Of a stretch of 24,000 bases of DNA, positions 2,556 to 21,606 are shown one piece after another. Positions within the stretch are counted from its first letter, which is position 1. The number at the start of each line of letters is the position of its first letter. The translations under genes and the position numbers were made by a program. The notes under the pieces were generated by a model that saw nothing but the letters and a program-made list of their open reading frames with translations, ran no database searches and was not told the origin of the DNA. Source of the DNA: Alphaproteobacteria bacterium. Lineage in GTDB: Bacteria; Pseudomonadota; Alphaproteobacteria; Paracaedibacterales; CAIULA01. Location: the NCBI GenBank assembly GCA_947475175.1, contig CANJLN010000001.1, positions 24,305 through 48,304 on the forward strand. The letters run 5' to 3'.

Positions 2556-3347
2556 TTGCTAAAACTACCACCTCTTATCTTCGGCACATTCATCAAACGA
2601 TATAAACGATTTTTTGTGGATGTGCTGTTAGAGGATGGAATTGAAGTCACAGCCCATTGTCCCAATCCAGGCGCAATGTTGGGCGTTTTAGATCCTGGTA
2701 ACCGAGTAGCCATCACCCATAACAGCAATCCGGCCCGAAAATTATCCTATACCTGGCAATTGGTCGAGGCCGAGGGGACATGGATTGGCGTTAACACACA
2801 TTTGACCAATGAAATTGCGGCTGCGGTTTTGGAACAGCAATTAAGGCTGTCATCCTCGGACTTGTTCCGAGGATCTAAAGATTCTCGCAATAAATGCGAG
2901 AATGACACTATAGGCGGGGTGTGTAGAGGCGCTCTAACTGAACTTTCTCTCTATTCAACCATCCAACGTGAAGTCAAATATGGGATTAATTCTCGCATTG
3001 ATTTTTTGTTAACGGGCGAAGGTTTACCACCCTGTTATTTAGAGGTGAAAAACGTTCATCTGAAACGAAATGGTGTTGCTCAGTTTCCTGATTGCGTGAC
3101 AGCCAGAGGAGCCAAACACATGGCTGAATTAACATTGATGCGTCAGCAAGGCGTGCGATGTGTGATTTTGTATATTGTGCAGCGAAATGATGTCAAAGAA
3201 TTTGCCTTGGCTGCCGATATTGATCCTGCTTATGCCAAGGCCTCAGAAATTGCCAAAGCCAGCGGCGTTGAAATGCTAGCCTTGGGATGTGAGTTTGATT
3301 TAGAAAAAGATTATGTCTCCTTTTTCAACAGACTTTTAGTGAGTTAA
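2556..3347 (+). CDS. sfsA: Sugar fermentation stimulation protein A (SfsA) homolog carrying an in-frame ~30-aa insertion
   Basis: TTG start. The N-terminus LPPLIFGTFIKRYKRFFVDV...HCPNPGAM matches E. coli SfsA ([20 protein letters not shown]...HCPNTGAM). Later blocks are REVKYG-NSRIDFLL, YLEVKNV and FPDCVTARGAKHMAEL. The length is 263 aa against ~234 aa for E. coli (recalled), and the excess maps to the repeat at 2847-2907. Confidence 0.9.
   Translation: MLKLPPLIFGTFIKRYKRFFVDVLLEDGIEVTAHCPNPGAMLGVLDPGNRVAITHNSNPARKLSYTWQLVEAEGTWIGVNTHLTNEIAAAVLEQQLRLSSSDLFRGSKDSRNKCENDTIGGVCRGALTELSLYSTIQREVKYGINSRIDFLLTGEGLPPCYLEVKNVHLKRNGVAQFPDCVTARGAKHMAELTLMRQQGVRCVILYIVQRNDVKEFALAADIDPAYAKASEIAKASGVEMLALGCEFDLEKDYVSFFNRLLVS
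2847..2907 (+). repeat. Double-hairpin palindromic element (TGTCAT...ATGACA termini), copy 1, inside sfsA
   Basis: The sequence is CTGTCAT-CCTCGGActtgtTCCGAGG-ATCT-AAAG-ATTCTCGCAataaaTGCGAGAAT-GACA. It has two 9-bp stems and TGTCAT/ATGACA terminal inverted repeats. The first 30 nt are identical to 4148-4177 and to the reverse complement of 13800-13829. It is read in frame as LSSSDLFRGSKDSRNKCEND. Confidence 0.9.
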
Positions 3348-4147: not shown

Positions 4148-4233
4148 CTGTCATCCTCGGACTTGTTCCGAGGATCTTTTGAAGTTTGTTAACCCCTTCC
4201 TGAGATTCTCGGAACAAGTCCGAGAATGACAAG
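4148..4233 (+). repeat. Double-hairpin palindromic element, copy 2, full-length and intergenic
   Basis: The left arm CTGTCATCCTCGGACTTGTTCCGAGGATCT (4148-4177) is followed by a 25-nt spacer. The right arm AGATTCTCGGAACAAGTCCGAGAATGACAAG (4203-4233) is the near-perfect reverse complement of the left arm. The two arm differences (C to T and G to A) are compensatory within the right hairpin. Confidence 0.9.
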
Positions 4234-4427: not shown

Positions 4428-4431
4428 TTTT

Positions 4432-7063: not shown

Positions 7064-8914
7064 TTACGCATGCTTTTTCAAAAAAGGATTCATTCCCTGA
7101 CTTAAAGCAACCGAGTCCGCAAATTGCAGCGTTGCCAAACGGCGATAAAGACCATCTTGCGTAATCAATTCAGCGTGCGTTCCAACAGCCTTAATTTCAC
7201 CTTGATCCAAAACCACAATTCGGTCCGCATTCAATACTGTTGCTAAACGGTGTGCGATCACAATTGTTGTGCGGGTTTTCATCAGGTGCTTTAGGCCATT
7301 TTGAACCGCATGTTCGCTTTCAGCATCCAAAGAATTGGTCGCCTCGTCCAAAAGGAGAATGCTTGGATTTCTTAGGATTGCACGGGCAATCGCAATGCGC
7401 TGTTTTTGCCCACCAGATAACCGAATGCCTCTCGTACCAACAACAGTATTAATGCCATGAGGAAGAATGGATAAAAAATCACCCAACTTAACAACCTCAG
7501 CCGCGCCCCATACTTCTTCTTCGGACGCGTTTGGCCGTCCATAGAGAATGTTTTCATAGATGGTTGTCGAAAACAGAGCAGGTTCTTGTGACACGATTCC
7601 AATTCGATTCCGCAAATCCTGCGCAGATGCATCTTTTATATCCATGCCATCTACATAAATGGACCCAGATTGCGGATCGTAAAAACGTAATAATAGAGAA
7701 AAGATGGTGCTTTTTCCCGCACCAGAGGGGCCAACAATGGCTAAGTTTTCGCCAGGAGCAACTGATAAAGTGGCCCTCTTTAAAACTTCACGCTCTGGAT
7801 GACTTGGGTATGCAAAGGAAACATTGTGCATCGCCAAGATCCCACGTGATATCACGGGCAGAGGGCGTTTTTGTTGATTGGACGCTGAAATCGGGAAAGA
7901 GAATAATTCTAAAAGGCGCTCTGTGGCACCCGCGGCCCTTTGCAGATCAGCAAAAAGTTCACTAAAAGAACCCGCAGAGCCGGCAGCAACCACCGCATAA
8001 AATACAAACGCTGATAATTCACCTGCTGTCAGTTGTAGGCTTGCAACATCGATAGCGCCTAACCATAGAACAACGCTGACCGCTGTAAAAACAAGGGTCA
8101 TGACAATACCGGCCATCAAAGCACGAGCGCGACTGCGTTTAACAGAAGCAGCAAAAGCATTTTCTGAATAATTGCGAAAAATTAATTTATCGATGCCTTC
8201 GTGATTAAAAGCCTGAACCGTTCGAATTTGATTGAGGCATTCATCTATGTAACCACCAATATCAGCGAGTCTGTCTTGAGACATCTTTGAATGATGACGA
8301 ACACGACGCCCCAATAAAACGATGGGAACAATAACAAGAGGAACAACCGCCAGGCAATATAAACTGAGTTTGGCTGAAATAGAGATCATCATAATAACCC
8401 CACCCACAAGCAAAAGTAGATTGCGAATAGCAATTGCAACTGATGTTCCAACCAAAATTTGAATCAGGGATGTATCTGTTGTCAGACGTGAGATAAGCTC
8501 ACCAACACGGATTTGTTCATAAAAACTGACTTCTAACTGCAGGATGTGTTGAAAAGCTTCACGCCTTAGATCATTCGCAACTCTTTCACCCAACCAAGCT
8601 ACATAATATGTTCTGCCAAAACTACCCAGAGCCAAAAGAACGACAGCAATACCAAGAGATGTTAGAATTGTTGGGAGTTGTTCAGCGCTTTGCCCAACAA
8701 AACCACCATCTATTAAATAACGAACACCAGATCCGAGGGCCAGAACCATACTTGAGGCAAGTAACAAGGAAAATAGAGCGAGGGTTATTTTGCCCTTATA
8801 GGGTGATAAAAAATGCTTTAAAAGACCAAATTCTTTAAGCGAGCGCAAAGGATGGTTACGTCCTGGTGGCCGTTTTTCGCCGATTGCAAAATCATGTTCA
8901 CTTTTTTCACGCAT
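7064..8914 (-). CDS. ABCB-type exporter, fused transmembrane domain and ATPase (MsbA-related/Mdl-like)
   Basis: The N-terminal half has six predicted TM helices and the GERVANDLRREAF...GELISRLTTDTSLIQ block typical of ABCB exporters. The C-terminal half has Walker A (GPSGAGKST), the ABC signature (LSGGQKQRIAIARA), Walker B (ILLLDEAT) and the H-loop (IAHRL). Confidence 0.9.
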   Translation of the reverse strand: MREKSEHDFAIGEKRPPGRNHPLRSLKEFGLLKHFLSPYKGKITLALFSLLLASSMVLALGSGVRYLIDGGFVGQSAEQLPTILTSLGIAVVLLALGSFGRTYYVAWLGERVANDLRREAFQHILQLEVSFYEQIRVGELISRLTTDTSLIQILVGTSVAIAIRNLLLLVGGVIMMISISAKLSLYCLAVVPLVIVPIVLLGRRVRHHSKMSQDRLADIGGYIDECLNQIRTVQAFNHEGIDKLIFRNYSENAFAASVKRSRARALMAGIVMTLVFTAVSVVLWLGAIDVASLQLTAGELSAFVFYAVVAAGSAGSFSELFADLQRAAGATERLLELFSFPISASNQQKRPLPVISRGILAMHNVSFAYPSHPEREVLKRATLSVAPGENLAIVGPSGAGKSTIFSLLLRFYDPQSGSIYVDGMDIKDASAQDLRNRIGIVSQEPALFSTTIYENILYGRPNASEEEVWGAAEVVKLGDFLSILPHGINTVVGTRGIRLSGGQKQRIAIARAILRNPSILLLDEATNSLDAESEHAVQNGLKHLMKTRTTIVIAHRLATVLNADRIVVLDQGEIKAVGTHAELITQDGLYRRLATLQFADSVALSQGMNPFLKKHA

Positions 8915-9227
8915 GGGATAACTCTAAATTGTAACCAAGTTGATGTTCTAATTCTGCAGCAAGTAAAGTATTTAATCCAGTTTTATTACGTGTCGATTGC
9001 CAATGTCCTTCTTCAAAACTGAAATGATGCGCTCCTGAAACAGGAGAAGAAAGCCAGAGTTGATTCATGGGTTCATGATAGTTGAGCAGGTAAACTTGGT
9101 CTGGACTTAGTTCAATGGACAGCATCTTTCCATCATAATCCACGTCGATGGCGTCGCAAGATTCCAGCTGATCTGCCAATGACTCTAGCGTTGCGAATGC
9201 TGTTTCTTTGTGGGAAGTAATGACCAT
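8907..9227 (-). CDS. cyaY: Frataxin homolog CyaY (iron-sulfur cluster assembly)
   Basis: 106 aa. The blocks DVDYDGKMLSIEL...YLLNYHEPMNQLWLSSPVSGAHHF...W match the CyaY/frataxin pattern. Its stop overlaps the ABC exporter ATG (ATGCGTGA, 8-nt overlap). Confidence 0.8.
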   Translation of the reverse strand: MVITSHKETAFATLESLADQLESCDAIDVDYDGKMLSIELSPDQVYLLNYHEPMNQLWLSSPVSGAHHFSFEEGHWQSTRNKTGLNTLLAAELEHQLGYNLELSHA

Positions 9228-9259
9228 TTTATATATTTAAATTTCGGAAAAGAAAAATC

Positions 9260-9335
<76 letters not shown>

Positions 9336-9350
9336 TTATATTGTCCCAAT

Positions 9351-9953
9351 CTACCCTGATCGTTTAGAGCTGGCAAGTGGAAACGATAAAGGCGCACCAA
9401 TGTCTTTATCGAGACCAACCTTTGTAGCGAGCACGTTCAACTGATACCACGCCAACGAATCATTTGACTGCAAGAGGGTAATCTGTTTCTTTATTCCGTC
9501 ATCATCTTTGTTAAAAAGTGTTTTTGCGAATGATAGAATATGTGGTTTATCAAGGAACTTAATAACGTTCTCGACGGTTTTAATATTTAAATCACTTGCA
9601 CTCTTAATACCAAGCTCTTTTGCTTCATCTAGCATAGCTTGACTGTCTGGAATAACATCAAAATATTGAAGCTTTGATTTCAGCTTAGACCATGCCTCCG
9701 GATCATCCTGCTTTAAAAGAACAATATGAGCCTCTATTTTCTCTTTGCTTACATAATGGTCAGCCGCGAATTTTTGCGCCACTTCACTATTAAGAAAATT
9801 AACAACGCTCTCAATGTTTTTAATATTTAAATCCGCGGCGCTGTAGATGCCAAAAGCCTTTGCTTCATTTTTAAGTGCGTCTGATGCAAAGCAAGAGCCT
9901 GTGATTAAAATTGTCGAAAGAGTAATGGCAACGATGAATTTTATGAGCTTCAT
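9351..9953 (-). CDS. Hypothetical exported protein made of two tandem ~80-aa repeats
   Basis: Signal-peptide-like N-terminus (MKLIKFIVAITLSTILITGSCFA). EAKAFGIYSAADLNIKNIESVVNFL... is repeated as EAKELGIKSASDLNIKTVENVIKFL... In the DNA, TTTAATATTTAAATC recurs 240 bp apart (about 9582 and 9822). Confidence 0.6.
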   Translation of the reverse strand: MKLIKFIVAITLSTILITGSCFASDALKNEAKAFGIYSAADLNIKNIESVVNFLNSEVAQKFAADHYVSKEKIEAHIVLLKQDDPEAWSKLKSKLQYFDVIPDSQAMLDEAKELGIKSASDLNIKTVENVIKFLDKPHILSFAKTLFNKDDDGIKKQITLLQSNDSLAWYQLNVLATKVGLDKDIGAPLSFPLASSKRSG

Positions 9954-10025
9954 TGATTTTGTCCAATGACTTTTTATTATTTTTAGTATTTTATTTAAGA
10001 TTATTACATTTTTATTAATATCAAG

Positions 10026-11018
10026 TTAAAAGCCCACCAACTGATCTTGAAAACCCATCAATGTCAAGCCACCACCGGAATGAACAATCAGATTATTGCC
10101 ATTCAATCCTTGCTCTTTGATGATTCGCCGAGCCTCTAAAAATAACTTTGCTGAATAAATGGGATCTGTCAGAAAGCCCTCTGCCCTAGCGATCTCAGCA
10201 ACTTGTTGCATGATTGTTTTGTTCACCGATCCAAATGATTTTGCTGTGATTGGAATGTGAAGTTGAAATCTTTTTCCCACCTCTTCCCATTCTAAGTCTT
10301 GTGAAGTCAGTCGTTCAAAATGCCTCTTAAAATTCTGAAGTTTGCTGATAAAAATGTCTTTATCGTCAGCTAATAAAAACACATGAACACAGGTTTGTTT
10401 TTCTAGATAAGCAAGAGTGAGAATCGTCGCAATGGCTGTTAAACCGCTTCCAGCCTCTGTAAAAATATGGCTAAAGCTCAACCCGAGGTTTTCTTCATTT
10501 CTTAAAATATCCAAAGGCAACGTGATCGCTCCCGGGAAAGCCTCTGGCATTAAGGCCCCTTCTGGAATAACGAACGCACCTCTAGGTTTGGCATATTTTT
10601 CAGCCAGACTTTCAACCTGTGGCCATTCTTCTCTTGGAACCCAATGAATGGAAGATTCAGGAACAAAAAGAGACGTCAAAAGGTAGTTTCCAATTTTCTC
10701 TGACGTGCCATCACCCAATAAAAACAAGGTTGGTTTGATGGATTGCTCAATCAATAATTGGCTTAATCCCAAGACATTGTTGGAGTATGAGCTTCCTATG
10801 ACAACAGCTTCTTGTATTTTTTTTTGTTTAAGATGTGGAATCAGCGATACATATTTTCTAAGTTTTGAACCGGAAATTCCAAAACCAAGCTCATCATCTC
10901 TTTTAACAAAGCAATTGGAACCAAATGACCGCAGTGAATGGACGCGTGAGCTTTGGTTATAATCGCTTAGAGAGCTAATCTTTTGTTTTAGATGAGTAAT
11001 CTTGAGAGATATCTTCAT
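10026..11018 (-). CDS. PLP-dependent 1-aminocyclopropane-1-carboxylate deaminase / D-cysteine desulfhydrase family protein
   Basis: 330 aa with the family N-terminal motif VKRDDELGFGISGSKLRKY (PLP-lysine context) and a C-terminal SGGGL glycine-rich loop. Confidence 0.75.
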   Translation of the reverse strand: MKISLKITHLKQKISSLSDYNQSSRVHSLRSFGSNCFVKRDDELGFGISGSKLRKYVSLIPHLKQKKIQEAVVIGSSYSNNVLGLSQLLIEQSIKPTLFLLGDGTSEKIGNYLLTSLFVPESSIHWVPREEWPQVESLAEKYAKPRGAFVIPEGALMPEAFPGAITLPLDILRNEENLGLSFSHIFTEAGSGLTAIATILTLAYLEKQTCVHVFLLADDKDIFISKLQNFKRHFERLTSQDLEWEEVGKRFQLHIPITAKSFGSVNKTIMQQVAEIARAEGFLTDPIYSAKLFLEARRIIKEQGLNGNNLIVHSGGGLTLMGFQDQLVGF

Positions 11019-11025
11019 AAGGCTC

Positions 11026-11325
11026 TTATGAAATTTGTATGCGATGGGTTCCTTTTTCTAAAACAAGGTGATAGCCACAAGCTTCTGCAATATTAACAAA
11101 GTTTTTCATTTTTAAGTCTTCTTGCTTGCCGGTGCGAAGTTTTTGAATGACAGCGGGGGATAATCCCACCTCATCTGCTAATCCTCTAACTGTTTTTTGC
11201 CCCTCTTCCATCAAGTCAACCAACAACTCTGACCACAGAAATTCTTTATAGCCCTCTTCAAAATCCTTTTTAAAGATAGGGTCTTTCATCTCTTGGTCAA
11301 ATGTCGATATTTTTTTTCTATTCAT
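11026..11325 (-). CDS. XRE/HTH-type antitoxin (HigA-like)
   Basis: 99 aa with an HTH segment (TVRGLADEVGLSPAVIQKLRTGK). It overlaps the upstream toxin gene by 8 nt, in the toxin-first order typical of HigBA/Gp49 modules. Confidence 0.7.
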   Translation of the reverse strand: MNRKKISTFDQEMKDPIFKKDFEEGYKEFLWSELLVDLMEEGQKTVRGLADEVGLSPAVIQKLRTGKQEDLKMKNFVNIAEACGYHLVLEKGTHRIQIS

Positions 11326-11704
11326 AATACGTCCCCTCTTTTAGTCGCCTTTGATAATTTTCTCTACAGGCTAAAGCCCGTTCTTTTTCACCCTGAGGCA
11401 ATTTCTGTTGTTTTTTTCTAAAGCCATTGGTAATGATAATTTTACTGTCCTGTATGAAAAAACACAGAAATCTCTCTGGATGAGGCTTAAAAGCGTAAAT
11501 TTGGTCACCCTCGTAATTAAATTTAGTTTTGTCACTAATTCTGCCGAAATCACCCATCCTCTTTGCCAGAAAAAGAAATTTCTTACGCTGACCAGTATCA
11601 AGACTTTGATAATAGTCTAAAGCTAAACTTTCTCCATTTTCAGAGACATACCATTCAACGGTAAAAGAATGGCCTTCGTAAGCGATGTATTGTTTTTCTT
11701 TCAT
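11318..11704 (-). CDS. Gp49-like (DUF891) RelE/HigB-superfamily toxin
   Basis: 128 aa. The pattern KFLFLAKRMGDFGRISDKTKF...YAFKPHPERFLCFFIQDSKIIITNGFRKKQQKLPQGEKERA matches the phage Gp49-like toxin family (...RilyfF...kiillthgF.KK..ktP..Ei..A). Confidence 0.75.
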   Translation of the reverse strand: MKEKQYIAYEGHSFTVEWYVSENGESLALDYYQSLDTGQRKKFLFLAKRMGDFGRISDKTKFNYEGDQIYAFKPHPERFLCFFIQDSKIIITNGFRKKQQKLPQGEKERALACRENYQRRLKEGTYYE

Positions 11705-11712
11705 AACCTAAC

Positions 11713-11732
11713 TGTACTATAAAAGTAGTACA
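11713..11732 (-). promoter_or_regulatory. Perfect 7-bp inverted repeat (TGTACTA-N6-TAGTACA), candidate operator of the toxin-antitoxin operon
   Basis: TGTACTA (11713-11719), spacer taaaag, then TAGTACA (11726-11732), lying 9-28 nt upstream of the toxin start codon at 11704. Type II TA operons are typically autoregulated at such palindromes. Confidence 0.4.
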
Positions 11733-11885
11733 ATTTCAACGTTTTTCTGGGAACATTGCACGCATGAATAAAATTAATGTAAAAACAGTAAATGATTTAC
11801 AGAAAATACACAATACTGTTAATAGAACGTTAATACAAAAGAACTATACTGTTAAGTAAGATTAATGCAAACCAAGAGCTATTAG

Positions 11886-12758
11886 ATGGATTTTCTTAAC
11901 ACACGCTCTCATTCAGCAGATTTAAGTTACGTTCGAGAAGCGATGAAAATGCCATTACTAGACAGAGAAAAAGAGATGAGCCTCGCTCGTGCTTGGTCAG
12001 AGGATCAAGATGAGAAAGCTTTTCAAGAACTGGTATGCGCTTACACGCGTCTTGTGGTCAGTGTAGCTTTGCGTTACCGCAACTATGGATTACCTGTCAG
12101 TGATTTAATTCAAGAAGGAAATATAGGGCTTTTACAAGCGGCTATTCGTTTTGACCACACTCGAGACGTGCGTTTTTCTACCTATGCAAAATGGTGGATA
12201 CGAGCTTGTATTCAAGAATTTATCTTAAGAAATTGGTCAATTGTGCGAACGGGTTCAACTTCAGCTCATAGAAACCTATTTTTCAATCTGAATCGCCTTC
12301 GCAATCAATTGCTTTCTCTCACAACAGACACCATGACATTACAAGACCAAACCGTTATTGCAGAACATCTTCATGTGACCATTCGACAAGTAGAGGAAAT
12401 GGAATACCGACTTGCTGGCCATGACCTGTCTTTAAGTCATCCCATCAGTGAATACGGAGAAGAAGATTGGCAGGATCTTTTACGTGATGTTCGACCAAAT
12501 CCAGAAGAAACAAGTGTTGAAGAACATTCAGAACAAAATCGTCTGCACTGGATTGAAGAAGCGATGGGCTGCCTGAATCCAAGAGAACAATACATCATCA
12601 CACAAAGACGTTTGACTGATTCTCCTTTGACTTTAGAAGAGCTTGGTAAAAAACTTTCCATCACCAAAGAGCGAGTTCGTCAACTTGAGGCAAAAGCTCT
12701 GAGACGCATGCGGTATTTCTTTATGGAGAGTATGTACGAGGTTCGCCAGACTCTTTGA
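11886..12758 (+). CDS. rpoH: RNA polymerase sigma-32 (heat-shock sigma factor RpoH)
   Basis: Sigma70-family regions are present: 2 (DLIQEGNIGLLQAAIRFD, STYAKWWIRACI) and 4.2 (LEELGKKLSITKERVRQLEAKALRRMR). The diagnostic RpoH box is also present (HRNLFFNLNRLR). Confidence 0.9.
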   Translation: MDFLNTRSHSADLSYVREAMKMPLLDREKEMSLARAWSEDQDEKAFQELVCAYTRLVVSVALRYRNYGLPVSDLIQEGNIGLLQAAIRFDHTRDVRFSTYAKWWIRACIQEFILRNWSIVRTGSTSAHRNLFFNLNRLRNQLLSLTTDTMTLQDQTVIAEHLHVTIRQVEEMEYRLAGHDLSLSHPISEYGEEDWQDLLRDVRPNPEETSVEEHSEQNRLHWIEEAMGCLNPREQYIITQRRLTDSPLTLEELGKKLSITKERVRQLEAKALRRMRYFFMESMYEVRQTL

Positions 12759-12888
12759 TACACCCTTCACCTTTCAAGAACCCTGTTCGTCAAAGTTCGG
12801 AAATCTTCGGTGCTCATGTATTTCCATATACATTCCGCTCCTCGACCCTTGTTTTCCTGCAGGTTTCTTGAAATTCATTGGGTATATA
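12758..12888 (+). repeat. ~130-bp palindromic-ended repeat element, copy A, intergenic
   Basis: It aligns by eye over its whole length with the reverse complement of 21688-21817, at roughly three-quarters identity with long identical runs such as AATCTTCGGTGCTC and CCGCTCCTCGACCCT. Its imperfect terminal inverted repeats are cACCCttcaccTTTCAAGAA and TTCTTGAAAttcattGGGTa. Confidence 0.85.
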
Positions 12889-12889
12889 A

Positions 12890-13504
12890 TTATTTATTTC
12901 TTTTCCAGGCGGCCCAAGCACCTATCATAATAATAATAAGCAGAATAACGCTTAGAAAATATTTCTGAACCGTTTCGAAATTCTCAATGATGCTGATCAT
13001 AACGTCCCCTAACAAATAACCGCTGATGCAGCTGACAAGTGTCCAGATGATCGCTGATAAAATATTTAGAGGAATATAACGCTGGGGGGAGATTCCAGCT
13101 GCACCAATCACAACGGCACTACTAATTCTAATACCATAAATAAAACGTGAAAGAATAATAAACCAAATATCGTATTTGTGAAGAAGTCTAAAAGCTTTCT
13201 CTGAAGATTTTTTTAAACTTGGAAAACGTTCAAATATTGCAGGCCCATAAGCACGCCCCACAAAATACAACACTTGATCAGCGATCAATGTACCAAAAAA
13301 CGCAATAATCATAATTTTGTAAAGGGAGAGATAACCAGCGTAAGCCATAGAACTCGCCGTTAAAATAACAGACTCGCCTTCGATTAAAGATCCCAAAAAA
13401 ACTGCCCAGTATCCCCATTCTTGTACAAAGGCAATAAACTGTTCCAACTTTTTATCCTGATTTTGGGCGTTTCCACCTAAGGAGAATAGCAAAGATTGAA
13501 CCAA
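12890..13504 (-). CDS. dedA: DedA/SNARE-associated family inner-membrane protein
   Basis: Family blocks are GYWAVFLGSLIEGESVILTA, YFVGRAYG and LSRFIYGIR, with multiple TM helices. The annotated ATG overlaps the ccmF/H 3' end by 53 nt, so the true start may be further downstream. Confidence 0.75.
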   Translation of the reverse strand: MVQSLLFSLGGNAQNQDKKLEQFIAFVQEWGYWAVFLGSLIEGESVILTASSMAYAGYLSLYKIMIIAFFGTLIADQVLYFVGRAYGPAIFERFPSLKKSSEKAFRLLHKYDIWFIILSRFIYGIRISSAVVIGAAGISPQRYIPLNILSAIIWTLVSCISGYLLGDVMISIIENFETVQKYFLSVILLIIIMIGAWAAWKRNK

Positions 13505-15656
13505 ACAACAACGCCCAAGGCAGCAACCACAAAGGAATTGTGTGCAATTTTAAAGGAGGTTTCAAAGTGATATTTTCTCCATATTTTTTTATTAAGTCCT
13601 GAAGGACACCTTCTTCTGATTGTCCTTCTTTTAGAGATTGAAAAATATCTTGTTTCATAAGGATTGCTTGATCACTTTGTGAATCCTCTAAGACTTGCCC
13701 TGCGCAGACTGGGCAAATGATTTTCTTATAAAGAGAATGTGCTGTTTCTTCAGTATTGCTTGCATAAGAAGCCCCCCCTATAAGCAACAGGCAGATGACA
13801 GATCCTCGGAACAAGTCCGAGGATGACAGAGTAGAGTTAGAGGATGATAAAAACGAAAACCGTTTGATTGCCCCTAAAGCACCCCCTACAACCATTAAGA
13901 TAATCCCGAACCATAATAAATTCATAAAAGGTTTATAATGAACTTTAAGTTCTATAGTTTCGTTTGAATCATCAATAAGGGCTGTATAGATGTGTGAAAA
14001 AAGAGTGGAATAAATCGCTGTTTCATTGTGAATGATTTTCTGCGTTTCGTAATATCGTTTTTCTGGAACCAACTGCGTTATCTCTTTTCCTGAATGGGAG
14101 ATGTTTAGAACAGCTTGATGAGCCGTATAATTGGGACCTTGTTTTATTTGTAAATTTTTAAATGCGCCTGTGTAGCCTGCAATATTAAAAGACTCCTCTT
14201 TTTTAAGAAAGACATGCTGTTCAATTTCTCCATAAGTGGAGCACACCATGCCCAAAACACATAAACCCAAACCAAAATGAGCAAAAATCATCGAAAGAGT
14301 TTTAAGATTGATTGGATGTGATTTCAGATAAAGAAGAGTACTGATCATTACCCAAACTGATAATCCTGTGGCAAAGAAAGCAAGAAACGAAGGATGTGGT
14401 AATAACCACCAACACAACAAGACGGAAAGAAGCGAAGCACTAAAAGCCGACAAAAGCTTTTCGTAATGTTTCCAAATGCCGACCCCCATCAATCCTAACA
14501 AAGGCAGCATCAAAGGAATAAACGTTGCTTGAAAATAAGGTGTGCCGATTGTAATGCTTTTTCCAAAATAAGAGAGAATCAGCGGATAGAGAATGGATAT
14601 AAAAATGGTCGCCGTGCCACAAAATAAAAATACGTTATTAAGTGCTATCATGCCGGGGCGTGACCAAGGTGAAGAGATGGGTAAGCCTTGAAAAATAGAG
14701 AATCTCCATATCCACAAAACGATAGAGGGAAGCGTGAAAGTACATAAAAGAATGAGCAACAAGACACCCCGTTCAGGATCAACGGCAAAACTATGGACTG
14801 ATGTTAAAAGTCCAGAGCGAACAAAAAATAGAGAAAAAAGACATAATCCAAAGGTGAGGATGCCTAACAAAAGAGATACGCGTGTCAAAGTTTGCTGCTT
14901 TTGAGCGCAAATAATACTGTGCAAGAAAGCCGTTGCTGTTAACCAAGGAAGAAGGGCCGCATTTTCAACCGGATCCCAGAACCAAAACCCACCCCATCCC
15001 AGTTCATAATAAGCCCAAAAACTGCCCAAAGCTAAGCCCGCGGTCATAAAACTCCACGAAACAAGCATCCAAAAACGAAGCGCTGAAATATGATTTATCG
15101 AGAGAGTTCCCTGCAACAAAGCAACTACACATAAGGCAAAGGGGACGCTGCAACCAACATAACCCGCATAGAGAATGGGGGGATGGATAGCCAAGCTTGG
15201 GTCTTGCAGCAAGGGGTTCAGATCATTGCCCTCTAACAAAGGAATTTCTAAGGTGATAAACGGATCGCTAGCAATCAGAACAAAAATAAGAAATCCTAAA
15301 ATAATCGAGGTTAAAATGCGACCCGTTGGTTCTTTGAGATTTTGAGGGAGGAAATAGGAAGAAAGACTGGTGTAAAAGCTTAAGATCAACACCCATAGAA
15401 GCATTGATCCCTCGTGATTTCCCCAAACACCACTGATTTTATAGAGAAGGGGTTTTGATGTATGAGAATGCTGAACAACATTCAGATACGAAAAATCTGA
15501 GGTGACATGCGCCCACATAAGTGTCCCAAAGGCGATGGCGATCCAGAAAAATATGACATGAGAAAATACTGGTCTGAATTTTTTTAAAAGGATGTGACTG
15601 ACGCAAAACAGCGAAGCTATGAGTAGGCATGCTTGACCGAAGAGAGCGGAGGTCAT
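13452..15656 (-). CDS. ccmF: Cytochrome c-type biogenesis protein CcmF (heme lyase subunit) fused in one ORF to a CcmH/CycL-like C-terminal module
   Basis: The CcmF hallmarks are WGNHEGSMLLW, the WWD-type motif GWGGFWFWDPVENAAL and many TM helices through about aa 600. Residues ~620-734 carry a signal-like segment (VICLLLIGGASYA), then the CcmH pattern IICPVCAGQVLEDSQSDQA...KKYGENITLKPPL plus a terminal TM helix. The joint is encoded by the repeat at 13795-13829. Confidence 0.85.
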   Translation of the reverse strand: MTSALFGQACLLIASLFCVSHILLKKFRPVFSHVIFFWIAIAFGTLMWAHVTSDFSYLNVVQHSHTSKPLLYKISGVWGNHEGSMLLWVLILSFYTSLSSYFLPQNLKEPTGRILTSIILGFLIFVLIASDPFITLEIPLLEGNDLNPLLQDPSLAIHPPILYAGYVGCSVPFALCVVALLQGTLSINHISALRFWMLVSWSFMTAGLALGSFWAYYELGWGGFWFWDPVENAALLPWLTATAFLHSIICAQKQQTLTRVSLLLGILTFGLCLFSLFFVRSGLLTSVHSFAVDPERGVLLLILLCTFTLPSIVLWIWRFSIFQGLPISSPWSRPGMIALNNVFLFCGTATIFISILYPLILSYFGKSITIGTPYFQATFIPLMLPLLGLMGVGIWKHYEKLLSAFSASLLSVLLCWWLLPHPSFLAFFATGLSVWVMISTLLYLKSHPINLKTLSMIFAHFGLGLCVLGMVCSTYGEIEQHVFLKKEESFNIAGYTGAFKNLQIKQGPNYTAHQAVLNISHSGKEITQLVPEKRYYETQKIIHNETAIYSTLFSHIYTALIDDSNETIELKVHYKPFMNLLWFGIILMVVGGALGAIKRFSFLSSSNSTLSSSDLFRGSVICLLLIGGASYASNTEETAHSLYKKIICPVCAGQVLEDSQSDQAILMKQDIFQSLKEGQSEEGVLQDLIKKYGENITLKPPLKLHTIPLWLLPWALLFGSIFAILLRWKRPKSG
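13795..13829 (-). repeat. Single-hairpin copy of the palindromic module, copy 3, at the ccmF/ccmH junction
   Basis: The minus strand reads CTGTCATCCTCGGACTTGTTCCGAGGATCTGTCAT. The first 30 nt are identical to 2847-2876 and 4148-4177, and the hairpin core is bracketed by a direct CTGTCAT repeat. It is translated in the same frame as in sfsA (LSSSDLFRGS). Confidence 0.9.
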
Positions 15657-15720
15657 ACTGGGAGATCCGGTTTGTTATTGCGAAACTCGCATGGCTGCGA
15701 CCAACCGATCATATGGTTTT

Positions 15721-15791
15721 TGGATCGGCACGCTTCGCTCGCGATGACGGTAGGGGCGTCTTTGCGAGGAGCGTAGAGACGTGGCAATCCA
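15721..15791. repeat. Imperfect ~30-bp-arm palindrome (REP-like)
   Basis: TGGATCGGCACGCTTCGCTCGCGATGAC-ggtagggg-GTCTTTGCGAGGAGCGTAGAGACGTGGCAATCCA. The arms are complementary at both ends (TGGAT.G.CACG / CGTG.C.ATCCA and GCGA.GAC / GTC.TTGCG) with internal indels. Confidence 0.6.
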
Positions 15792-15842
15792 AGTATCTTG
15801 AAATGTCGTGGGTATACCAAGGTGTCACAACTTAAAAAAACA

Positions 15843-15992
15843 CTGTCATCCCGGAACCTAGTCGAACTGCGACTTGCCGCTAGTGAGATTTGATATCCGG
15901 GATCCAGAAAAACTATAAAAATGGCCTGGATTCCTGATAAGTGGCTCGTTCTCCAAGCTAAAGCTTGGACTCGCCTACTTTCTGGAATGACA
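15843..15992. repeat. ~150-bp MITE-like element with CTGTCATCCCGGAA / TTCTGGAATGACA termini and a nested inner palindrome
   Basis: The outer imperfect inverted repeats are at 15843-15856 and 15980-15992. The inner inverted repeat is ATCCGGGATCCAG (15895-15907) / CTGGATTCCTGAT (15926-15938). It shares the CTGTCAT terminus with the hairpin family. Confidence 0.65.
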
Positions 15993-16330
15993 ATAGGCAT
16001 ACAAATATTTTTGCAAAAATTATCCATTTGTTAACTATTTTGCATTATTGTTATAATTACAGACGTTTGTATTGGCGCCCACAGAAAGGTACCCGCCCTG
16101 TTTTTTTTCGACAGGTTTAGCGGCATGGGGGAGGATTTTATCCAATTCCAGCCGGAGTCTGGGGTAGTGGGTGGCCCCGCCCTTCTGAGGGTGGGGGACT
16201 GTATAGGAAAAGTTAATTTTTGGTTAATTTCCGATACAATTTTAGTGAATTTCTTCTTGAGTCCACAGAAGCTGCTCTCATGCCTATCCTTGTTCTTGCA
16301 ATATTGTGTTTTATTCCAAATCATCATGCT

Positions 16331-16762
16331 TTAGCCCTGTCTTTTCAGCCCATCAGCAACTTCTTTAGGCATATAATTTTCATCATGCTTGGCTAAGATT
16401 CGTGTCGCCTTAAAGCTGCTATTCGCTTCAAAGTTTCCCTCGGCCACAACGCCTTGGTCCTCTCGGAAAAGATCAGGCAAAACCCCTTGGTAAAAAACAT
16501 TAATAGAATGTTTGCCATCGGTGATTTTAAAAGTAATTTGATCGCGTTCTTTAATCAGGCTTTGTTTTGCAACCATACCGCCTAAACGCATCATCTTGGT
16601 GCTAACAGGGGTATTATCTTTTTGTTTTTCAATCCATTCAGAGGGCGTTACAAAAAAAACCACGTTTTCTCTAAGAGCTCCCAGAATAATCAGCGCAACA
16701 CCCGCGGCACACATCAAAAGAGCAAGAATCGTCCAGCTACGGTGTTGGGCTTTTGGGTGCAT
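16331..16762 (-). CDS. ccmE: Cytochrome c-type biogenesis heme chaperone CcmE
   Basis: 143 aa with an N-terminal membrane anchor, VVFFVTPSEW, LPDLFREDQGVVAEG and the heme-binding His context LAKHDENYMPKEV. Confidence 0.92.
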   Translation of the reverse strand: MHPKAQHRSWTILALLMCAAGVALIILGALRENVVFFVTPSEWIEKQKDNTPVSTKMMRLGGMVAKQSLIKERDQITFKITDGKHSINVFYQGVLPDLFREDQGVVAEGNFEANSSFKATRILAKHDENYMPKEVADGLKRQG

Positions 16763-18881
16763 GAGTCTTTGGCTTTTTTGTCTCTTCTCGTTTTTTCTTT
16801 TTTCGCTCCAAAGCTTGTTCTCGATAATGCATCCCTATGTCTCGATTAGAAACGCCCTTTTTCCGCTCAAATCCCTCTCGAGGACTGAAACTCTTTTCTG
16901 ACTTAGAAGAATCTCTTCCTTTTGGCATACTCTGTCCTGTTAATGAAAAAGAAATGGAACACGTTATGGGATCAGCGGCATCCAATAAGACTGTCAGAGG
17001 TTGCCCCAGTTGATAAACTTTCTTTGTGCGCGACCCTATATAACGATGAAGGTTGGTGTCAAAAACATAATAATCACCTGGCAGACGGCTTTTGGGAACA
17101 AACCCTTGTGCACCGTTATCGTCCAAACCAATAAAAAGACCCGCACTGCTAACGCCAACGATGCTGCCCTTGAAAGAAGATCCAACTTGATTTTCTAAAT
17201 AAGAGGCGAGATAGCGATCCATCACTTCTCGCTCTGCCGTTGCTGCGATACGTTCCGTTGCTGAAATATGATCGCCAATCATTTCCAAAACTTCTAGCGG
17301 GAGAGATTCTTGACCTCCCTCACCCAACTCCAAAGCCTCTATTAAAGCGCGGTGAACAACCAAATCTGAATAACGTCGAATAGGTGACGTAAAATGGCAA
17401 TATTGGGCCAAACTTAAGCCAAAGTGCCCAATATTTTGAGGAGCATAACGTGCTTGAGCTTGGGAACGCAAAACCAAATCATTAATAAGACGCATGTAAG
17501 GAGACGCAGACGACTCTGTTAAAATTTGATTGAACTGGATAGGAGAAAGTTTCTCAGCCTTAGGAATAGTGATCTTAAACGATTTTAAAAGCGTCCTTAG
17601 GTTTTCAACGCGCGCTGCATCAGGTATGTCATGAATACGGAAAAGAGTTGGCCAATTTTTAACAAGCAATGTTTTAGCAGCAGCCACATTAGCTGCAATC
17701 ATCATCTCTTCAATAAGTTGATGGCTATCTAATCTTTCTCTTGGAACAATATCTTTAACAAATCCTTTTTCATCAAATTTAACCTGACGTTCAGGGATGT
17801 TTAAATCCAATGTTCCGCGTTTATGTCGCGCTTTTAAAAGTGTTTTGTAAGCGCCATACAAGGGTTTAATCACCCCTTCATAAATAGGTTTTGTTACGTC
17901 ATCAAGTGTTCCATTGATGGCATTTTGGACTTGTGCATAGGTAAGCCTCGCACACGACCTCATGAGTCCACGTTTGAACCGATGTGATTTAATTTTGCCA
18001 TAGCTATCGATAACTATTTCAGCGACCAAGCATGCTCTATCTTGATGGGGTTTTAAAGAACAAAGATCGTTCGATAAAGCCTCAGGTAACATTGGGACAA
18101 CGCGATCAGGAAAATAAACAGAATTCCCTCTTAGATAAGCTTCACGGTCCAAAGCATCAGCAGGGCGTACATAATAAGAAACATCAGCGATGGCAACAAT
18201 CATTCTCCATCCGCCTACGTTTTGAGGATCAATATCAGCTGCGGCCCATACGGCGTCATCGAAATCTCTGGCATCTTCGCCATCGATAGTCACAAGCGGA
18301 ATGTTTCTTAAATCAACACGATCTCCAAGTGGGGGAACTTTACCCTTTGAAGCCAAGTCCAAGGCATCTTGATTATAGTCATAAGGGAGTTTGTGAGCAT
18401 AAACAGCCATCAAACTAAAGACTTTTGGATCAGTGATTGACCCCAATCTTACATCGATATGAACTTTTTTTCCTTTTAGGTGATAAAAAACAACATCACC
18501 TTCGGTCAGAGTATCTGCTAGATCTTTTTCGCAAAACACACCCGGAAAGGTATCTTTTCTGTGGCAAGGGACCAAACTTGAACCATTATGTTTTCTTTGA
18601 AAAAGACCCAAATGAAATTCTGTTTCATCCTTTTTATAACGAAACTTCTCTTTATTCGTTACTTCAGAATTAACTGGTGGCTCTTTTTTTCTAAGTTTAG
18701 AACCATAACCTTCTTCTTTTAATTCAGCAAGAATGTGCTTCAATAGCCTGCGACGCGCTCCCTTAACTCCCAAAACTTTAGCAATTTCATGCTTGGTTAC
18801 CAAATGATGGCTATTGGTGATAAGTTTTAAAACGGCTTTTTTCAGGTCTTCTGCATCTCTGTCTTGAATGTCTTGGCTCAT
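16737..18881 (-). CDS. rnr: Ribonuclease R (RNB-family 3'-5' exoribonuclease)
   Basis: RNB catalytic motifs are present (TIDGEDARDFDDAV, YFPDRVVPMLPEALSNDLCSL, HFGLSLAQYCHFTSPIRRYSDLVVHR). There is also a C-terminal S1-like domain (FKGSIVGVSSAGLFIGL) and a Lys-rich basic tail. The 3' end overlaps the ccmE start by 26 nt. Confidence 0.9.
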   Translation of the reverse strand: MSQDIQDRDAEDLKKAVLKLITNSHHLVTKHEIAKVLGVKGARRRLLKHILAELKEEGYGSKLRKKEPPVNSEVTNKEKFRYKKDETEFHLGLFQRKHNGSSLVPCHRKDTFPGVFCEKDLADTLTEGDVVFYHLKGKKVHIDVRLGSITDPKVFSLMAVYAHKLPYDYNQDALDLASKGKVPPLGDRVDLRNIPLVTIDGEDARDFDDAVWAAADIDPQNVGGWRMIVAIADVSYYVRPADALDREAYLRGNSVYFPDRVVPMLPEALSNDLCSLKPHQDRACLVAEIVIDSYGKIKSHRFKRGLMRSCARLTYAQVQNAINGTLDDVTKPIYEGVIKPLYGAYKTLLKARHKRGTLDLNIPERQVKFDEKGFVKDIVPRERLDSHQLIEEMMIAANVAAAKTLLVKNWPTLFRIHDIPDAARVENLRTLLKSFKITIPKAEKLSPIQFNQILTESSASPYMRLINDLVLRSQAQARYAPQNIGHFGLSLAQYCHFTSPIRRYSDLVVHRALIEALELGEGGQESLPLEVLEMIGDHISATERIAATAEREVMDRYLASYLENQVGSSFKGSIVGVSSAGLFIGLDDNGAQGFVPKSRLPGDYYVFDTNLHRYIGSRTKKVYQLGQPLTVLLDAADPITCSISFSLTGQSMPKGRDSSKSEKSFSPREGFERKKGVSNRDIGMHYREQALERKKKKREETKKPKTHAPKSPTP

Positions 18882-19273
18882 ACTAGCTTTAACTTATGTC
18901 CTTAGTTGTTCAACTCCAACATATCATATATTCAGAGAATCAACAAATAGACCAAAAGGGCAGCAACAATTCCCGAAGAGGATTAGGTGTAATTTTTGGT
19001 TAAGGTTCAGTGAATAACACCCACTAAATAGCTGGGGCAAAAACAAGAACGGGTTGCATACATAACTTAATAACACTGGGTTTAGTCGAGACTTGCAAAA
19101 AATTTATCACAAAACCCTCTAAATTGCTCGCTTTATCAACCTTCCGGGAATTGATGATCTTTTGATTTGACGTTTTTTAAACACTTCAACAATTTGAAAA
19201 TGAACCCTCTTGATTTCTTCCAGAGTTATTGCCTAGGTTATATCGTAAGGATTTTTAAATTTAGTTATTTCAT

Positions 19274-19957
19274 ATGCCTCAGTCAGGTCAAAAAACAATC
19301 ATTGCGCCATCGCTCCTCTCTGCGGATCTTTTGAATCTACAGACAGAAATTGATCTTATTACCAAAGCAGGTGCTGACTGGCTTCATCTTGATATCATGG
19401 ATGGGCATTTTGTGCCCAATCTAACTTTTGGTCCTGAATTTGTAAGGCAAATTAAAAAGATTTCTCAATTGCCAATCGATGTACACTTGATGATTTCGCC
19501 TGCAGATGCTTTTATTGATGCCTTTGCCAAAGCCGGCGCCAGTTACATAACGATTCATCCTGAGGCTGATTTTCACCCGCATCGAACGTTGCAAAAAATT
19601 AAAAGCCATGGTGTTAAAGCTGGCATCGCTTTGAGTCCGGGGACACCCATTGAAACGGTGTATCCTTTGCTAGAAATAATCGATCTCATTTTAATTATGA
19701 CTGTTAATCCAGGATTTAGCGGACAGAAGTTTATAGCCCATCCTCTTGAAAAATTAAAAGCCTTAAGAAAGTTAATTGATACACATAAATATCCTATATT
19801 ATTAGAAGTCGATGGCGGTGTTGATAAAACAACAGCCAAAGAAATTACCTGTGCGGGCGCTGACGTTCTTGTGACGGGTCAGTATGTTTTTTCAAAGGAT
19901 ATGCCTGTATCTTCTGACGTTTATAAATCTCGTATTGAAGATCTAAGGAAACAATGA
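19274..19957 (+). CDS. rpe: Ribulose-phosphate 3-epimerase
   Basis: Motifs are APSLLSADLLNL, HLDIMDGHFVPNLTFGP, MTVNPGFSGQKF and EVDGGV. Confidence 0.92.
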   Translation: MPQSGQKTIIAPSLLSADLLNLQTEIDLITKAGADWLHLDIMDGHFVPNLTFGPEFVRQIKKISQLPIDVHLMISPADAFIDAFAKAGASYITIHPEADFHPHRTLQKIKSHGVKAGIALSPGTPIETVYPLLEIIDLILIMTVNPGFSGQKFIAHPLEKLKALRKLIDTHKYPILLEVDGGVDKTTAKEITCAGADVLVTGQYVFSKDMPVSSDVYKSRIEDLRKQ

Positions 19958-21606
19958 GTCAACATCCCGTCTTGTCTCAGTTCAGTTATTTTTTGCATCG
20001 ACTGGCGCAAAAGTATCGTCTGTATGGGGTAACTCTTTTAGGGCGGTCTACTTCTGAATTATTAACGATCCCATCAGATCCCTGGCCTGGGAATTTTCAA
20101 GTGGCTCACACAATACTCGAGGGAGCGTTTCCTTTTCGTGGGCAACTGATCCCTCTTAAAGATTGTTTGGATTATTTAGGGCGGCCTGATCGGTGCCCAA
20201 GTCCTCTTCTGCCCAGATTGCACGGGTTTGAATGGCTCAAGGATTTGCGTGCTATCAGTACGAACCCCAGCAGGAAAAGAGCACGTCAACTGATTATGCA
20301 CTGGATCAATCAGAATCATTCTTGGTCTACAAAGAGCTGGCTATCTCCTGCTTGGCGCCCTGACATTACAGCCAATCGCCTATCGAGCTGGATTTCTGTT
20401 TATGATTTCTTTGGAGCCAGTGCGGATGATTTTTTTAAGCAAGCCTTTTTTAGAAGCTTGATGAAGCAGTACCGCTATTTGCGTCGCATTTACACAAGCA
20501 TCACCGATCCTTTGCAGGCTTTCATCGTCTTAAAAAGCCTCATTGCTTGTGCTTGCACTTTACCAAGACAAAAAGGGAGGATCCCTTCTTTTGTGAACAG
20601 TCTTCAAAAAGTTCTAAAAGCGCAGATTTTGGCTGATGGAGGGCATGTCAGTCGATCCCCAGCTTTGCAGCTCATTATTTTGCGAGATCTGATTGATATT
20701 CGTTCCCTTTTAAAAAATATAGAAGCTGAAGATCCTCCTTTTTTACAACAAGCCATTAATGTGATGGCGCCTATGGTCAGACTCTTCCGGCATGGGGACG
20801 GGGGATTAGCTGATTTTGCAGGCAATATCGATCCCTGTTCTCTAAGCTTTGATCCTGAAAATATTTCACCTGCCGTTGTTGATATGGCTTTGTCTTTGGC
20901 CGATGTACGAGGGCGTCCTCCTGGTCGTGCGCCTTATATGGGCTACGAAAGATGCATAGGGAAGTCAGGGTTGATTCTACTGAATGTCAAACCTTCTTAT
21001 AATGAAGTGCCGCTTTTAACAACAGAGGGAGAGCCAGGCGTTAATATTTTAGATTTCGAATGGAGTGTTGGCAGGCAACGAATTCTTAGACGTTCTGATC
21101 TGATCGTTCAGCTTTCCGATCATTCCTGGCTTAAGATTGATAATGACCAGGGAAGTCTTGCGCTGAAAAGACACAGCAAAGATGGAAATGGCTATCTTTC
21201 AGCTGACTTTGATCAGTTCATTCGAGGCGTTTCTTATCGACACCAGCGACAACTTTATCTAGGCGGAGAAGAAGGGGACTTTAGAGGACATGATATCTTT
21301 ACTCTTTCTCAACCAGCAATGGCCGCAGTCCGGTTCATTTTTTCTAGGAATGTCGAAGTTTTATCGCAAACCACAAAGAAAATTAAAATTAAAGTCTATC
21401 CATCTGCTGCAATTGCAGGAAAAGGAGAGTCAAAAAAAACAGTGCAAACATGGAGTTTTATCACAAAAGGAGCGAGCGATGCCCTTTGGCAACATTGCAA
21501 AGAAACAGGGTTGCCGTATTTGATGCTTTTGACACCCCTTGTAAAAGAAGAGGCGCAAACGATCAAATGGGCCTTTCGTTTGGATGAAAATATTGAGAAA
21601 AGGTAA
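19954..21606 (+). CDS. Heparinase II/III-like family protein (conserved alphaproteobacterial protein of unknown role)
   Basis: 550 aa. The start overlaps the rpe stop (ATGA). The blocks ADGGHVSRSPALQ and FRHGDGGLADFAGN resemble the heparinase II/III-like family as I recall it from alphaproteobacterial annotations. This is recollection, not a verified match. Confidence 0.5.
   Translation: MSQHPVLSQFSYFLHRLAQKYRLYGVTLLGRSTSELLTIPSDPWPGNFQVAHTILEGAFPFRGQLIPLKDCLDYLGRPDRCPSPLLPRLHGFEWLKDLRAISTNPSRKRARQLIMHWINQNHSWSTKSWLSPAWRPDITANRLSSWISVYDFFGASADDFFKQAFFRSLMKQYRYLRRIYTSITDPLQAFIVLKSLIACACTLPRQKGRIPSFVNSLQKVLKAQILADGGHVSRSPALQLIILRDLIDIRSLLKNIEAEDPPFLQQAINVMAPMVRLFRHGDGGLADFAGNIDPCSLSFDPENISPAVVDMALSLADVRGRPPGRAPYMGYERCIGKSGLILLNVKPSYNEVPLLTTEGEPGVNILDFEWSVGRQRILRRSDLIVQLSDHSWLKIDNDQGSLALKRHSKDGNGYLSADFDQFIRGVSYRHQRQLYLGGEEGDFRGHDIFTLSQPAMAAVRFIFSRNVEVLSQTTKKIKIKVYPSAAIAGKGESKKTVQTWSFITKGASDALWQHCKETGLPYLMLLTPLVKEEAQTIKWAFRLDENIEKR

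Follow-up and report, generated by a model that had tools for sequence, protein, structure and literature searches.

A CGTC-class REP unit at the joint of an older ccmF-ccmH fusion gene in a Paracaedibacteraceae-like alphaproteobacterium, and a split form of the gene in a sister strain

The reviews of cytochrome c maturation that we consulted describe only two natural fusions, CcmH-CcmI in E. coli and CcsB-CcsA in Helicobacter, and our literature search did not find a paper describing a fusion of CcmF to CcmH. As of a 2023 review there was no experimental structure of CcmF/H, and a solved CcmF/H complex was not found in our search of the PDB. Here we report on a gene, ccmFH, which encodes as one polypeptide the two subunits that are separate in the System I (Ccm) heme lyases, and on a short palindromic repeat lying in frame at the joint between them. 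The gene is carried on a stretch of 24,000 nucleotides from an alphaproteobacterium of the Paracaedibacterales (positions 24,305 to 48,304 of the forward strand of contig CANJLN010000001.1, GenBank assembly GCA_947475175.1); this whole stretch is called the window, and positions given below are those of the window unless stated otherwise.

The closest described relatives of the repeat are the CGTC-tagged repetitive extragenic palindromes (REPs) surveyed by Di Nocera, De Gregorio and Rocco (2013, BMC Genomics 14:522; PMC3733652). These have a CGTC tag, which may be TGTC or CCTC, a stem of 8-9 bp in which A-T comes first, a loop of 4-5 nt and a tail which is mostly CCA; head-to-head dimers prevail, the hosts are mostly alpha-Proteobacteria and no dedicated transposase is known for them (PMC3733652). 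The same survey equates CGTC-1 with Rickettsia palindromic element (RPE) RPE-6 and CGTC-4 with RPE-4, and documents intragenic REPs that are in frame, including a CGTC-1 unit in ccmF of R. conorii itself, read as VIPAKAGI at aa 26-33 (supplementary table of PMC3733652).

Comparison of the window with a sister strain and with fused homologs suggests a history that we regard, taken as a whole, as probable: an ancestral ccmFH fusion would later have received an insert with a REP dimer, and an 84-nt deletion would then have re-fused the gene of the window. The repeat is a passenger on an old fusion that is common in its clade, and not the inventor of that fusion.

A single gene for CcmF and CcmH

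The open reading frame (ORF) at 13452..15656 on the minus strand runs without interruption from an ATG start to a TAA stop and encodes 734 aa (ORF list). Pfam placed three domains in its product, Cytochrom_C_asm at aa 78-282 (E = 4e-40), CcmF_C at aa 301-598 (E = 4e-65) and CcmH at aa 634-731 (E = 3e-25), confirming the first-pass annotation of the window, which had read the ORF as a CcmF part followed by a CcmH part with a CPVC motif. The CcmF module covers codons 1-601 (13854..15656, minus strand; Pfam, AlphaFold2 and hydropathy profile) and its last helix, LLWFGIILMVVGGALGAIKR, is aa 580-599 in the codon table. The mature CcmH module covers codons 633-734 and the stop (13452..13760, minus strand; Pfam and AlphaFold2), with CPVC at codons 648-651 (window 13704-13715) and a C-terminal transmembrane (TM) anchor at aa 704-729. 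Among PDB entries, T. thermophilus CcmF (6zmq) matched aa 36-536 (E = 4e-55) and the CcmH structures 2hl7/2kw0 matched aa 630-702, while the NCBIfam models for CcmF/NrfE and for NrfF-like proteins matched with every score under the curated cut-off. The identical 734-aa protein is encoded by 6 independently assembled contigs, so the single ORF is not the product of a sequencing error hiding a stop codon and start site at the joint, a possibility which the first-pass annotation had raised.

In its likeness to the System I CcmF/CcmH heme lyase (E. coli, Rhodobacter; 6ZMQ; 2HL7, 2KW0) the gene goes beyond having the same domains and the CxxC motif (CPVC) in CcmH. Residues G220, W221, G222, G223, W225, W227 and D228 are invariant, as are the histidines H158, H246 and H460, and the resulting G-W-G-G-x-W-x-W-D stretch (aa 220-228) is at the position expected for the WWD motif. 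The window ccmFH keeps all of the invariant CcmF residues and the near-invariant CcmH residues, the CPVC cysteines among them. The neighbourhood is also of Ccm type, with ccmE upstream of ccmFH in the same orientation (16331..16762, minus strand; Pfam CcmE) and ccmC and ccmD near it on the contig of the sister strain. The gene thus has the CcmF core, the CcmF_C domain and the CcmH domain, and its context is System I rather than Nrf. On these matches we assign the ORF as ccmFH, the heme lyase CcmF fused to the thiol-oxidoreductase subunit CcmH; the difference from the System I CcmF and CcmH is that both subunits are here encoded as one polypeptide.

A homolog search was run over ~5.8 billion proteins and the best 120 matches were examined. 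All three Pfam domains were present in one protein in 64 of these 120 (36-79% identity, ~730-765 aa), whose sources include metagenome-assembled genomes (MAGs) of Alphaproteobacteria and Candidatus Paracaedibacter. Alignment of the C-terminal 215 residues of 65 fused proteins (the 64 relatives and that of the window) showed the same order in the relatives, the last CcmF helix being followed by a short basic linker, a hydrophobic segment of ~12-16 residues and then the CxxC domain, and in the seven closest relatives the linker is R-F-S/K-K-I or a near variant. The REP repeat was not found at the linker in any of the 64 fused relatives. The closest of these repeat-free proteins, P0002 from Candidatus Paracaedibacteraceae bacterium clean674 (76-79% identity), is encoded by a fused gene in the same ccmE-ccmFH-VTT-domain synteny without the element. 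As so many repeat-free relatives are fused through a homologous linker, the fusion predates the REP, and by this alignment the CcmF-CcmH fusion is the ancestral state of a large Paracaedibacteraceae-like group of Alphaproteobacteria. Unfused CcmF proteins also occur within the clade (for example P0009 and P0045), showing that the joint has been broken more than once. Databases hold dozens of CcmF-CcmH fused proteins under automatic names, and the fusion is under-described rather than new.

The repeat at the joint and its class

At the joint lies a 30-nt module, CTGTCATCCTCGGACTTGTTCCGAGGATCT, which occupies 13829..13800 on the coding strand (codons 610-619 of ccmFH) and is 100% identical to copies at 2847-2876 and 4148-4177; its 24-nt core has 4 matches in the window where 0 were expected (100 shuffles). 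The module opens at codon position 1 both in ccmFH (codon 610 is the CTG at 13829) and in sfsA (start at 2556; (2847-2556) mod 3 = 0) and translates as LSSSDLFRGS in both, so the first-pass annotation was right in describing the linker as encoded by a perfect 30-nt repeat in the same frame as in sfsA.

A structural scan found five REP units at three loci in the 24 kb, every one with a TGTC tag, a perfect 9-bp stem with AT at its opening, a loop of 5 nt and a short tail. Copies are 98-100% identical to one another, which points to recent activity of the element. The unit in ccmFH (13800..13829, minus strand) has the stem arms ATCCTCGGA/TCCGAGGAT, the loop CTTGT and the tail CT, folds as RNA at -14.1 kcal/mol (z = -2.97) and is solitary; the other two loci each carry a head-to-head dimer with the tags outward. 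One of these is intergenic (4148..4232) with units at 4148-4177 (+) and 4203-4232 (-) on either side of a 25-nt spacer, and was recognised by repeat search, structural scan and RNA fold (-57 kcal/mol, z = -10.3). The other, a heterodimer at 2847..2908 on the plus strand (repeat search and structural scan), is in frame in sfsA (ORF 2556-3347, plus strand), where it forms codons 98-118, LSSSDLFRGSKDSRNKCENDT, between the SfsA_N (OB) domain at aa 13-79 and the RE (nuclease) domain at aa 125-250. E. coli SfsA (4DAP) aligns to aa 5-89 and 122-250 of the window SfsA, and the ~30 extra residues between these two blocks hold the dimer; judged by this alignment the sfsA copy is an in-frame insertion too.

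The 23-nt stem-loop was scanned for in one genome per species and was present at at least 73 loci. These are nearly all alphaproteobacterial, in Caulobacter, Rhizobiales, Hyphomicrobiaceae, Neomegalonema, Tepidamorphus, Azospirillum, Paracaedibacteraceae and gut MAGs, and 94 copies taken from many Alphaproteobacteria yield cGTC-ATYCTCGGACTTGTTCCGAGRAT-Cca as their consensus. We considered whether matches in MAGs of Clostridia/Eubacteriales reflect horizontal transfer of the 23-mer and rejected this; the four matches inspected were T-flanked, terminator-like hairpins and, as they lack the GTC tag, they are chance identities. Rfam at its gathering threshold gave two tRNAs only in the window and no match for the hairpins, and among the ORFs of the 24-kb window no match to the Y1 transposase family (RAYT, REP-associated tyrosine transposase) was found.

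Taken together, the tag, the 9-bp stem opening with AT, the 5-nt loop, the mostly head-to-head dimers, the dispersed copies, the alphaproteobacterial hosts and the occasional in-frame genic copies adding ~10-30 residues are those of the CGTC-tagged REPs, and on these sequence features we class the repeat as a CGTC/TGTC-tagged REP, a short selfish palindrome found in Alphaproteobacteria. It therefore belongs to a described class, and its presence in frame within ccmF has a direct precedent in R. conorii. It differs in three respects from the REPs of the 2013 survey: the Paracaedibacteraceae-like host is outside that survey; the tail is CT (CT(A/T/G/C) across the window units), where CCA is the usual ending of same-stem copies from other Alphaproteobacteria; and its reading in the window is LSSSDLFRGS, whereas ccmF and several other genes of R. 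conorii use a V-I-x frame.

A looser likeness, drawn from their description, is to the RPEs as selfish palindromes which are tolerated in frame in loops and linkers of conserved proteins of intracellular Alphaproteobacteria. RPEs lying in frame within protein-coding genes are said to have been reported by Ogata et al. in 2000 and 2002 and by Claverie and Ogata in 2003. The size differs, RPE-1 being ~100-150 nt and the window unit 30 nt, and the case described here goes beyond the RPEs in being polymorphic within a species, with a long form that interrupts the gene and a short form that does not.

REP-like peptides were also seen elsewhere in fused relatives. P0003 (73% identity) has an insert of ~26 aa in the short loop at ~aa 447-450, between helices 424-446 and 451-475 (window numbering), which contains PDPRNKSKDDK, the same REP read on the opposite strand, and P0005 (56% identity) has an N-terminal insert with RHCEEQ, typical of another CGTC-type REP. 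If these are taken at face value, and they are seen as peptides only, ccmFH would have been struck by REPs independently at least three times.

Fused and split alleles at the joint

The insert in the window lineage is longer than the REP unit. It consists of 54 nt in frame, codons 602-619 (FLSSSNSTLSSSDLFRGS; 13800..13853, minus strand), placed between R-F-S and the signal-like segment which precedes CcmH, and was delimited by the tail alignment of the 65 fused proteins, in which it is missing from all 64 relatives, by the codon table and by DNA alignment with the sister strain and with a 76% identical relative (L004). The window linker reads GAIKRFS[FLSSSNSTLSSSDLFRGS]VICLLLIGGASYASN where P0002 reads GVINRFSKITICFLAMLLANTSYASD. 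The first-pass annotation had pointed to a direct CTGTCAT repeat bracketing the hairpin, and CTGTCAT is indeed present on each side of it. A target-site duplication was considered as its origin and rejected. On the 5' side it consists of the TGTC tag of the REP and the AT opening the stem, as in all five window units; on the 3' side it is made up of CT, the tail of the REP, and a GTCAT that aligns with native sequence, which reads ATCAT in the sister strain and ACAAT in the 76% relative. From codon 588 to the CcmH module no in-frame ATG was found in the codon table, as had been noted in the first reading, and in-frame TTG codons occur at 615, in the REP loop, and at 624. Internal initiation at TTG615 is not favoured, given its place in the REP loop and that no Shine-Dalgarno-like sequence was found upstream of it.

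In the sister strain, which is ~98% identical to the window over 11 kb and is represented by contigs from three ENA assemblies, the gene is split. On 4 contigs a ccmF of 632 aa and a ccmH of 127 aa are called by gene finders, in the same frame and with only TGA-AGA-GGT-TTG between them. Compared with the window, the sister strain has 84 extra nt (28 codons) between 13799 and 13800, the indel junction (minus strand), window 13771-13799 corresponding to positions 7858-7970 of the sister contig L001 by BLAST. These 84 nt are made up of a second REP unit, 45 nt containing the in-frame TGA, a Shine-Dalgarno (SD)-like AAGAGG and the TTG, and then native AAA ATA, so that the sister sequence reads RFS FLSSSNST LLSSDLFRGS KDSRNKCENDT KE* RG L(TTG)EKTLLNHLA KIIICVFLTWNVSHA NNPEE. 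The joint of the sister strain thus holds a full REP heterodimer, 98% identical to the sfsA dimer of the window; the 5' part of the insert, 53 nt, is common to both alleles at 94% identity, and the mature CcmH modules of the two are identical at 95/101 residues. The split is associated with the insert, the TGA itself being in the 45 nt outside the REP. TGA recoding in the sister strain is ruled out, as TGA is an ordinary stop in the window, where it ends 5/20 ORFs and is in frame within none, and TGG is used 86 times. JGI (Joint Genome Institute) metagenome contigs were scanned for further alleles with the 32-nt junction flank and nothing was found.

The direction of the change between the two alleles we infer from what each retains, and we lean towards the long split form being the older, with the window allele derived from it by an 84-nt in-frame deletion. 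K-I (AAA ATA) stands directly after the insert in the sister strain and is also present in P0002 and P0004-P0008 (P0003 has K-M) but is absent from the window, and its being kept by the sister strain and the outgroups suggests that the long form is older. In addition, the 98% identity of the sfsA dimer and the sister ccmF dimer indicates that the dimer is copied as one unit, from which the lone unit of the window is most simply a truncated dimer. The linker would then have gained extra DNA, including a CGTC/TGTC-tagged REP dimer, in the lineage of the species of the window; the resulting long form, kept in the sister strain, would have been divided into ccmF and ccmH by a TGA in frame and a TTG start beyond it. 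The window allele would have arisen from it by one deletion of 84 nt (28 codons) that starts exactly at the tail of REP unit 1 and covers the second unit, the stop codon, the SD-like motif and TTG, and both native codons for K-I; a single ORF with an 18-residue cytoplasmic insert would thereby have been restored.

Several observations weigh against so simple a history. The polarity is drawn from two parsimony arguments and from two alleles only. The 24 nt 5' and the 45 nt 3' of the sister dimer, the latter including the TGA, recur nowhere else among 81 loci, and only the REP core (insert positions 23-85) recurs there; for this reason the whole 129-nt insert is not supported as one long RPE-1-like element. 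No microhomology was seen between the two ends of the deletion. Immediately 3' of the junction, 42 nt are strongly diverged, with 26 mismatches in the 13634-13800 block against a baseline of <1%, and recombination with a third lineage may have taken the place of a simple deletion; one of the alleles may have been brought in by recombination tracts, of which one ends at the REP. Between window 7846-18949 and L001 the divergence is a mosaic, most 200-nt blocks having 0-3 mismatches (baseline <1%) and patches of ~6-15% divergence lying at 15950-15350, 13800-13634 and 13433-12638, which suggests homologous recombination with diverged lineages.

Some features favour the reverse order of events, in which the fused single-REP allele of the window would be the older and the sister strain would have gained the second REP unit and the 45 nt with TGA. 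REPs are known to accumulate and to form dimers and clusters (PMC3733652), the alleles share the 5' part of the insert, and recombination tracts end at the REP. A later insertion would, however, have to recreate the native AAA ATA (K-I) codons of the outgroups, and the near identity of the sister dimer to the sfsA dimer as a unit suggests that dimers arrive whole, and we consider this order unlikely, though not negligible.

The proposal of the first-pass annotation was that the hairpin element inserted between a separate ccmF and ccmH, removed the stop and start signals and so made the fusion de novo. The repeat is exactly at the joint, no ATG precedes the CcmH module, and the sister allele shows that a split arrangement exists in the species. 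A comparison with related loci, set beforehand as the way to refute the proposal, found that CcmF and CcmH are already joined by a homologous linker in the relatives that lack the repeat, some as distant as 36% identity, and the split sister allele carries more of the element, not less. It is the 84 nt absent from the window that hold the stop and the start, and these were probably lost by deletion. Insertion of the REP neither removed them nor created the fusion, and a fusion made by insertion is very improbable. That the fused gene is an assembly or sequencing error at the hairpin, or a decaying pseudogene in a reduced endosymbiont genome, is least credible of all, for although palindromic repeats are prone to mis-assembly and the sister strain has a stop at the site, 6 contigs encode exactly the 734-aa product and 4 carry the split form, all from separate assemblies, the indel is exactly 84 nt or 28 codons, the invariant CcmF and near-invariant CcmH residues are kept, CcmH is little changed between the alleles and the AlphaFold2 model is confident.

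The protein product, the gene neighbourhood and what the joint means

An AlphaFold2 model of the ccmFH product, made from a 70-sequence alignment, had a pLDDT (predicted local distance difference test) of 89.2 and a pTM (predicted template modelling score) of 0.90. Its CcmF module has 15 TM helices, with a beta domain at aa 478-575 and TM15 at aa 578-605. Since the beta domain is periplasmic in CcmF and precedes TM15, K598/R599 and the 18 residues of the REP-bearing insert should lie in the cytoplasm. Residues 606-636 are modelled as coil, with pLDDT <50 and no helix at aa 616-635. Within this region lies the signal-like segment VICLLLIGGASYA, codons 620-632 (13761..13799, minus strand; 65-protein alignment, hydropathy and AlphaFold2), whose hydrophobic core is short, which has a site of A-x-A type, SYA|S, and which falls below the 19-residue TM hydropathy threshold. 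Near this core the window allele has a single positive charge, the REP-encoded R617. Across the fused proteins the residue aligned with A632 (-1) is A/G/S/C/T in 65/65 and that at -3 is small or aliphatic in 65/65, a pattern which in the alignment is of signal peptidase I type. The ancestral joint, read from these sequences, is one in which TM15 ends in the cytoplasm and is followed by a linker of 4-10 residues and by the former CcmH signal peptide, which returns the CxxC domain to the periplasm.

The first-pass annotation had concluded that the former signal peptide must now be an extra TM helix of the heme lyase. This is not required, in view of the signal peptidase I-type site in 65/65 proteins and the lack of a modelled helix. 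The reading that we prefer, at about even odds, is that the product is cleaved into separate CcmF and CcmH, with the segment still serving as an internal signal peptide; in the alternative it may stay uncleaved as a sixteenth TM helix, and cleavage is at least as likely as this. Under either reading the CPVC domain lies in the periplasm, anchored by the helix at aa 704-729. Should cleavage occur, mature CcmF and CcmH would be almost the same from the split and from the fused allele, which would explain why both are tolerated.

Around ccmFH several gene calls deserve comment. Downstream of ccmFH lies a VTT/DedA-like gene whose longest ORF, 12890-13504, opens with a TTG at 13504 and shares 53 nt with the end of ccmFH. 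The call for this gene in the sister strain is 186 aa long and begins 5 nt past the ccmH stop, and by that call the window gene probably starts downstream of 13504. Upstream, the spacer between ccmE and ccmF (15657-16330) is ~670 nt in the window versus ~170 nt in the 76% relative L004. Between the two genes a 124-aa ORF is called at 15653-16027 (minus strand), for which no Pfam match was found and which resembles a degenerate CGTC-type REP string (..VIPESRR.., ..LDPGYQ...FRDDS.., ..TVIASEACRSKN..; DNA e.g. CCGTCATCGCGAGCGAAGCGTGCCGATCCA); by its sequence it is probably a false call across clustered REPs. It lies in a region that coincides with one of the patches where window and sister strain are highly diverged. 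The intergenic REP dimer at 4148-4232 is ~120 nt upstream of a tRNA gene (4351-4424; Rfam), and a 158-aa ORF (4255-4731) overlaps that tRNA on the same strand and had no Pfam match found, so it is probably no real gene.

Elsewhere in the window a second, unrelated repeat of ~130 nt is present as inverted copies at 12758-12886 and 21689-21817, 9 kb apart and ~80-85% identical, both of them intergenic, one after rpoH and the other after the ORF at 19954-21606. Overlapping genes for a Gp49/HigB-like toxin and an HTH_3 antitoxin-like protein (Pfam) lie at 11026-11704 on the minus strand between rpoH and the gene of a PALP enzyme. An 81-nt direct repeat (9548-9628 and 9788-9868), 74% identical and with its copies 240 nt apart, is inside a 200-aa ORF (9351-9953) for which no Pfam match was found.

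Both alleles being at hand, the locus offers a clean natural case in which a REP-containing insert goes with the splitting of an essential gene and in which a deletion at the edge of a REP would have rejoined it. We would suggest, tentatively and from the sequences, that natural CcmF-CcmH proteins may be polyproteins, in which an internal CcmH signal peptide, maintained by selection together with its signal peptidase I site, would re-initiate export beyond the last CcmF helix and would then be cut to give stoichiometric CcmF and CcmH, the joint being in effect a spacer at which REP clusters could toggle the gene between split and fused at little cost. If so, the window and the sister strain would be two states of such a switch, and processing of the internal signal peptide is a prediction that can be tested. 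CcmF-CcmH single-gene lyases are widespread in Paracaedibacteraceae-like Alphaproteobacteria and could be of use in structural or biochemical studies of the CcmF/H synthase, much as the natural CcsBA fusion was for System II; if the product is uncleaved, it would provide a ready single-chain CcmFH for structural work.

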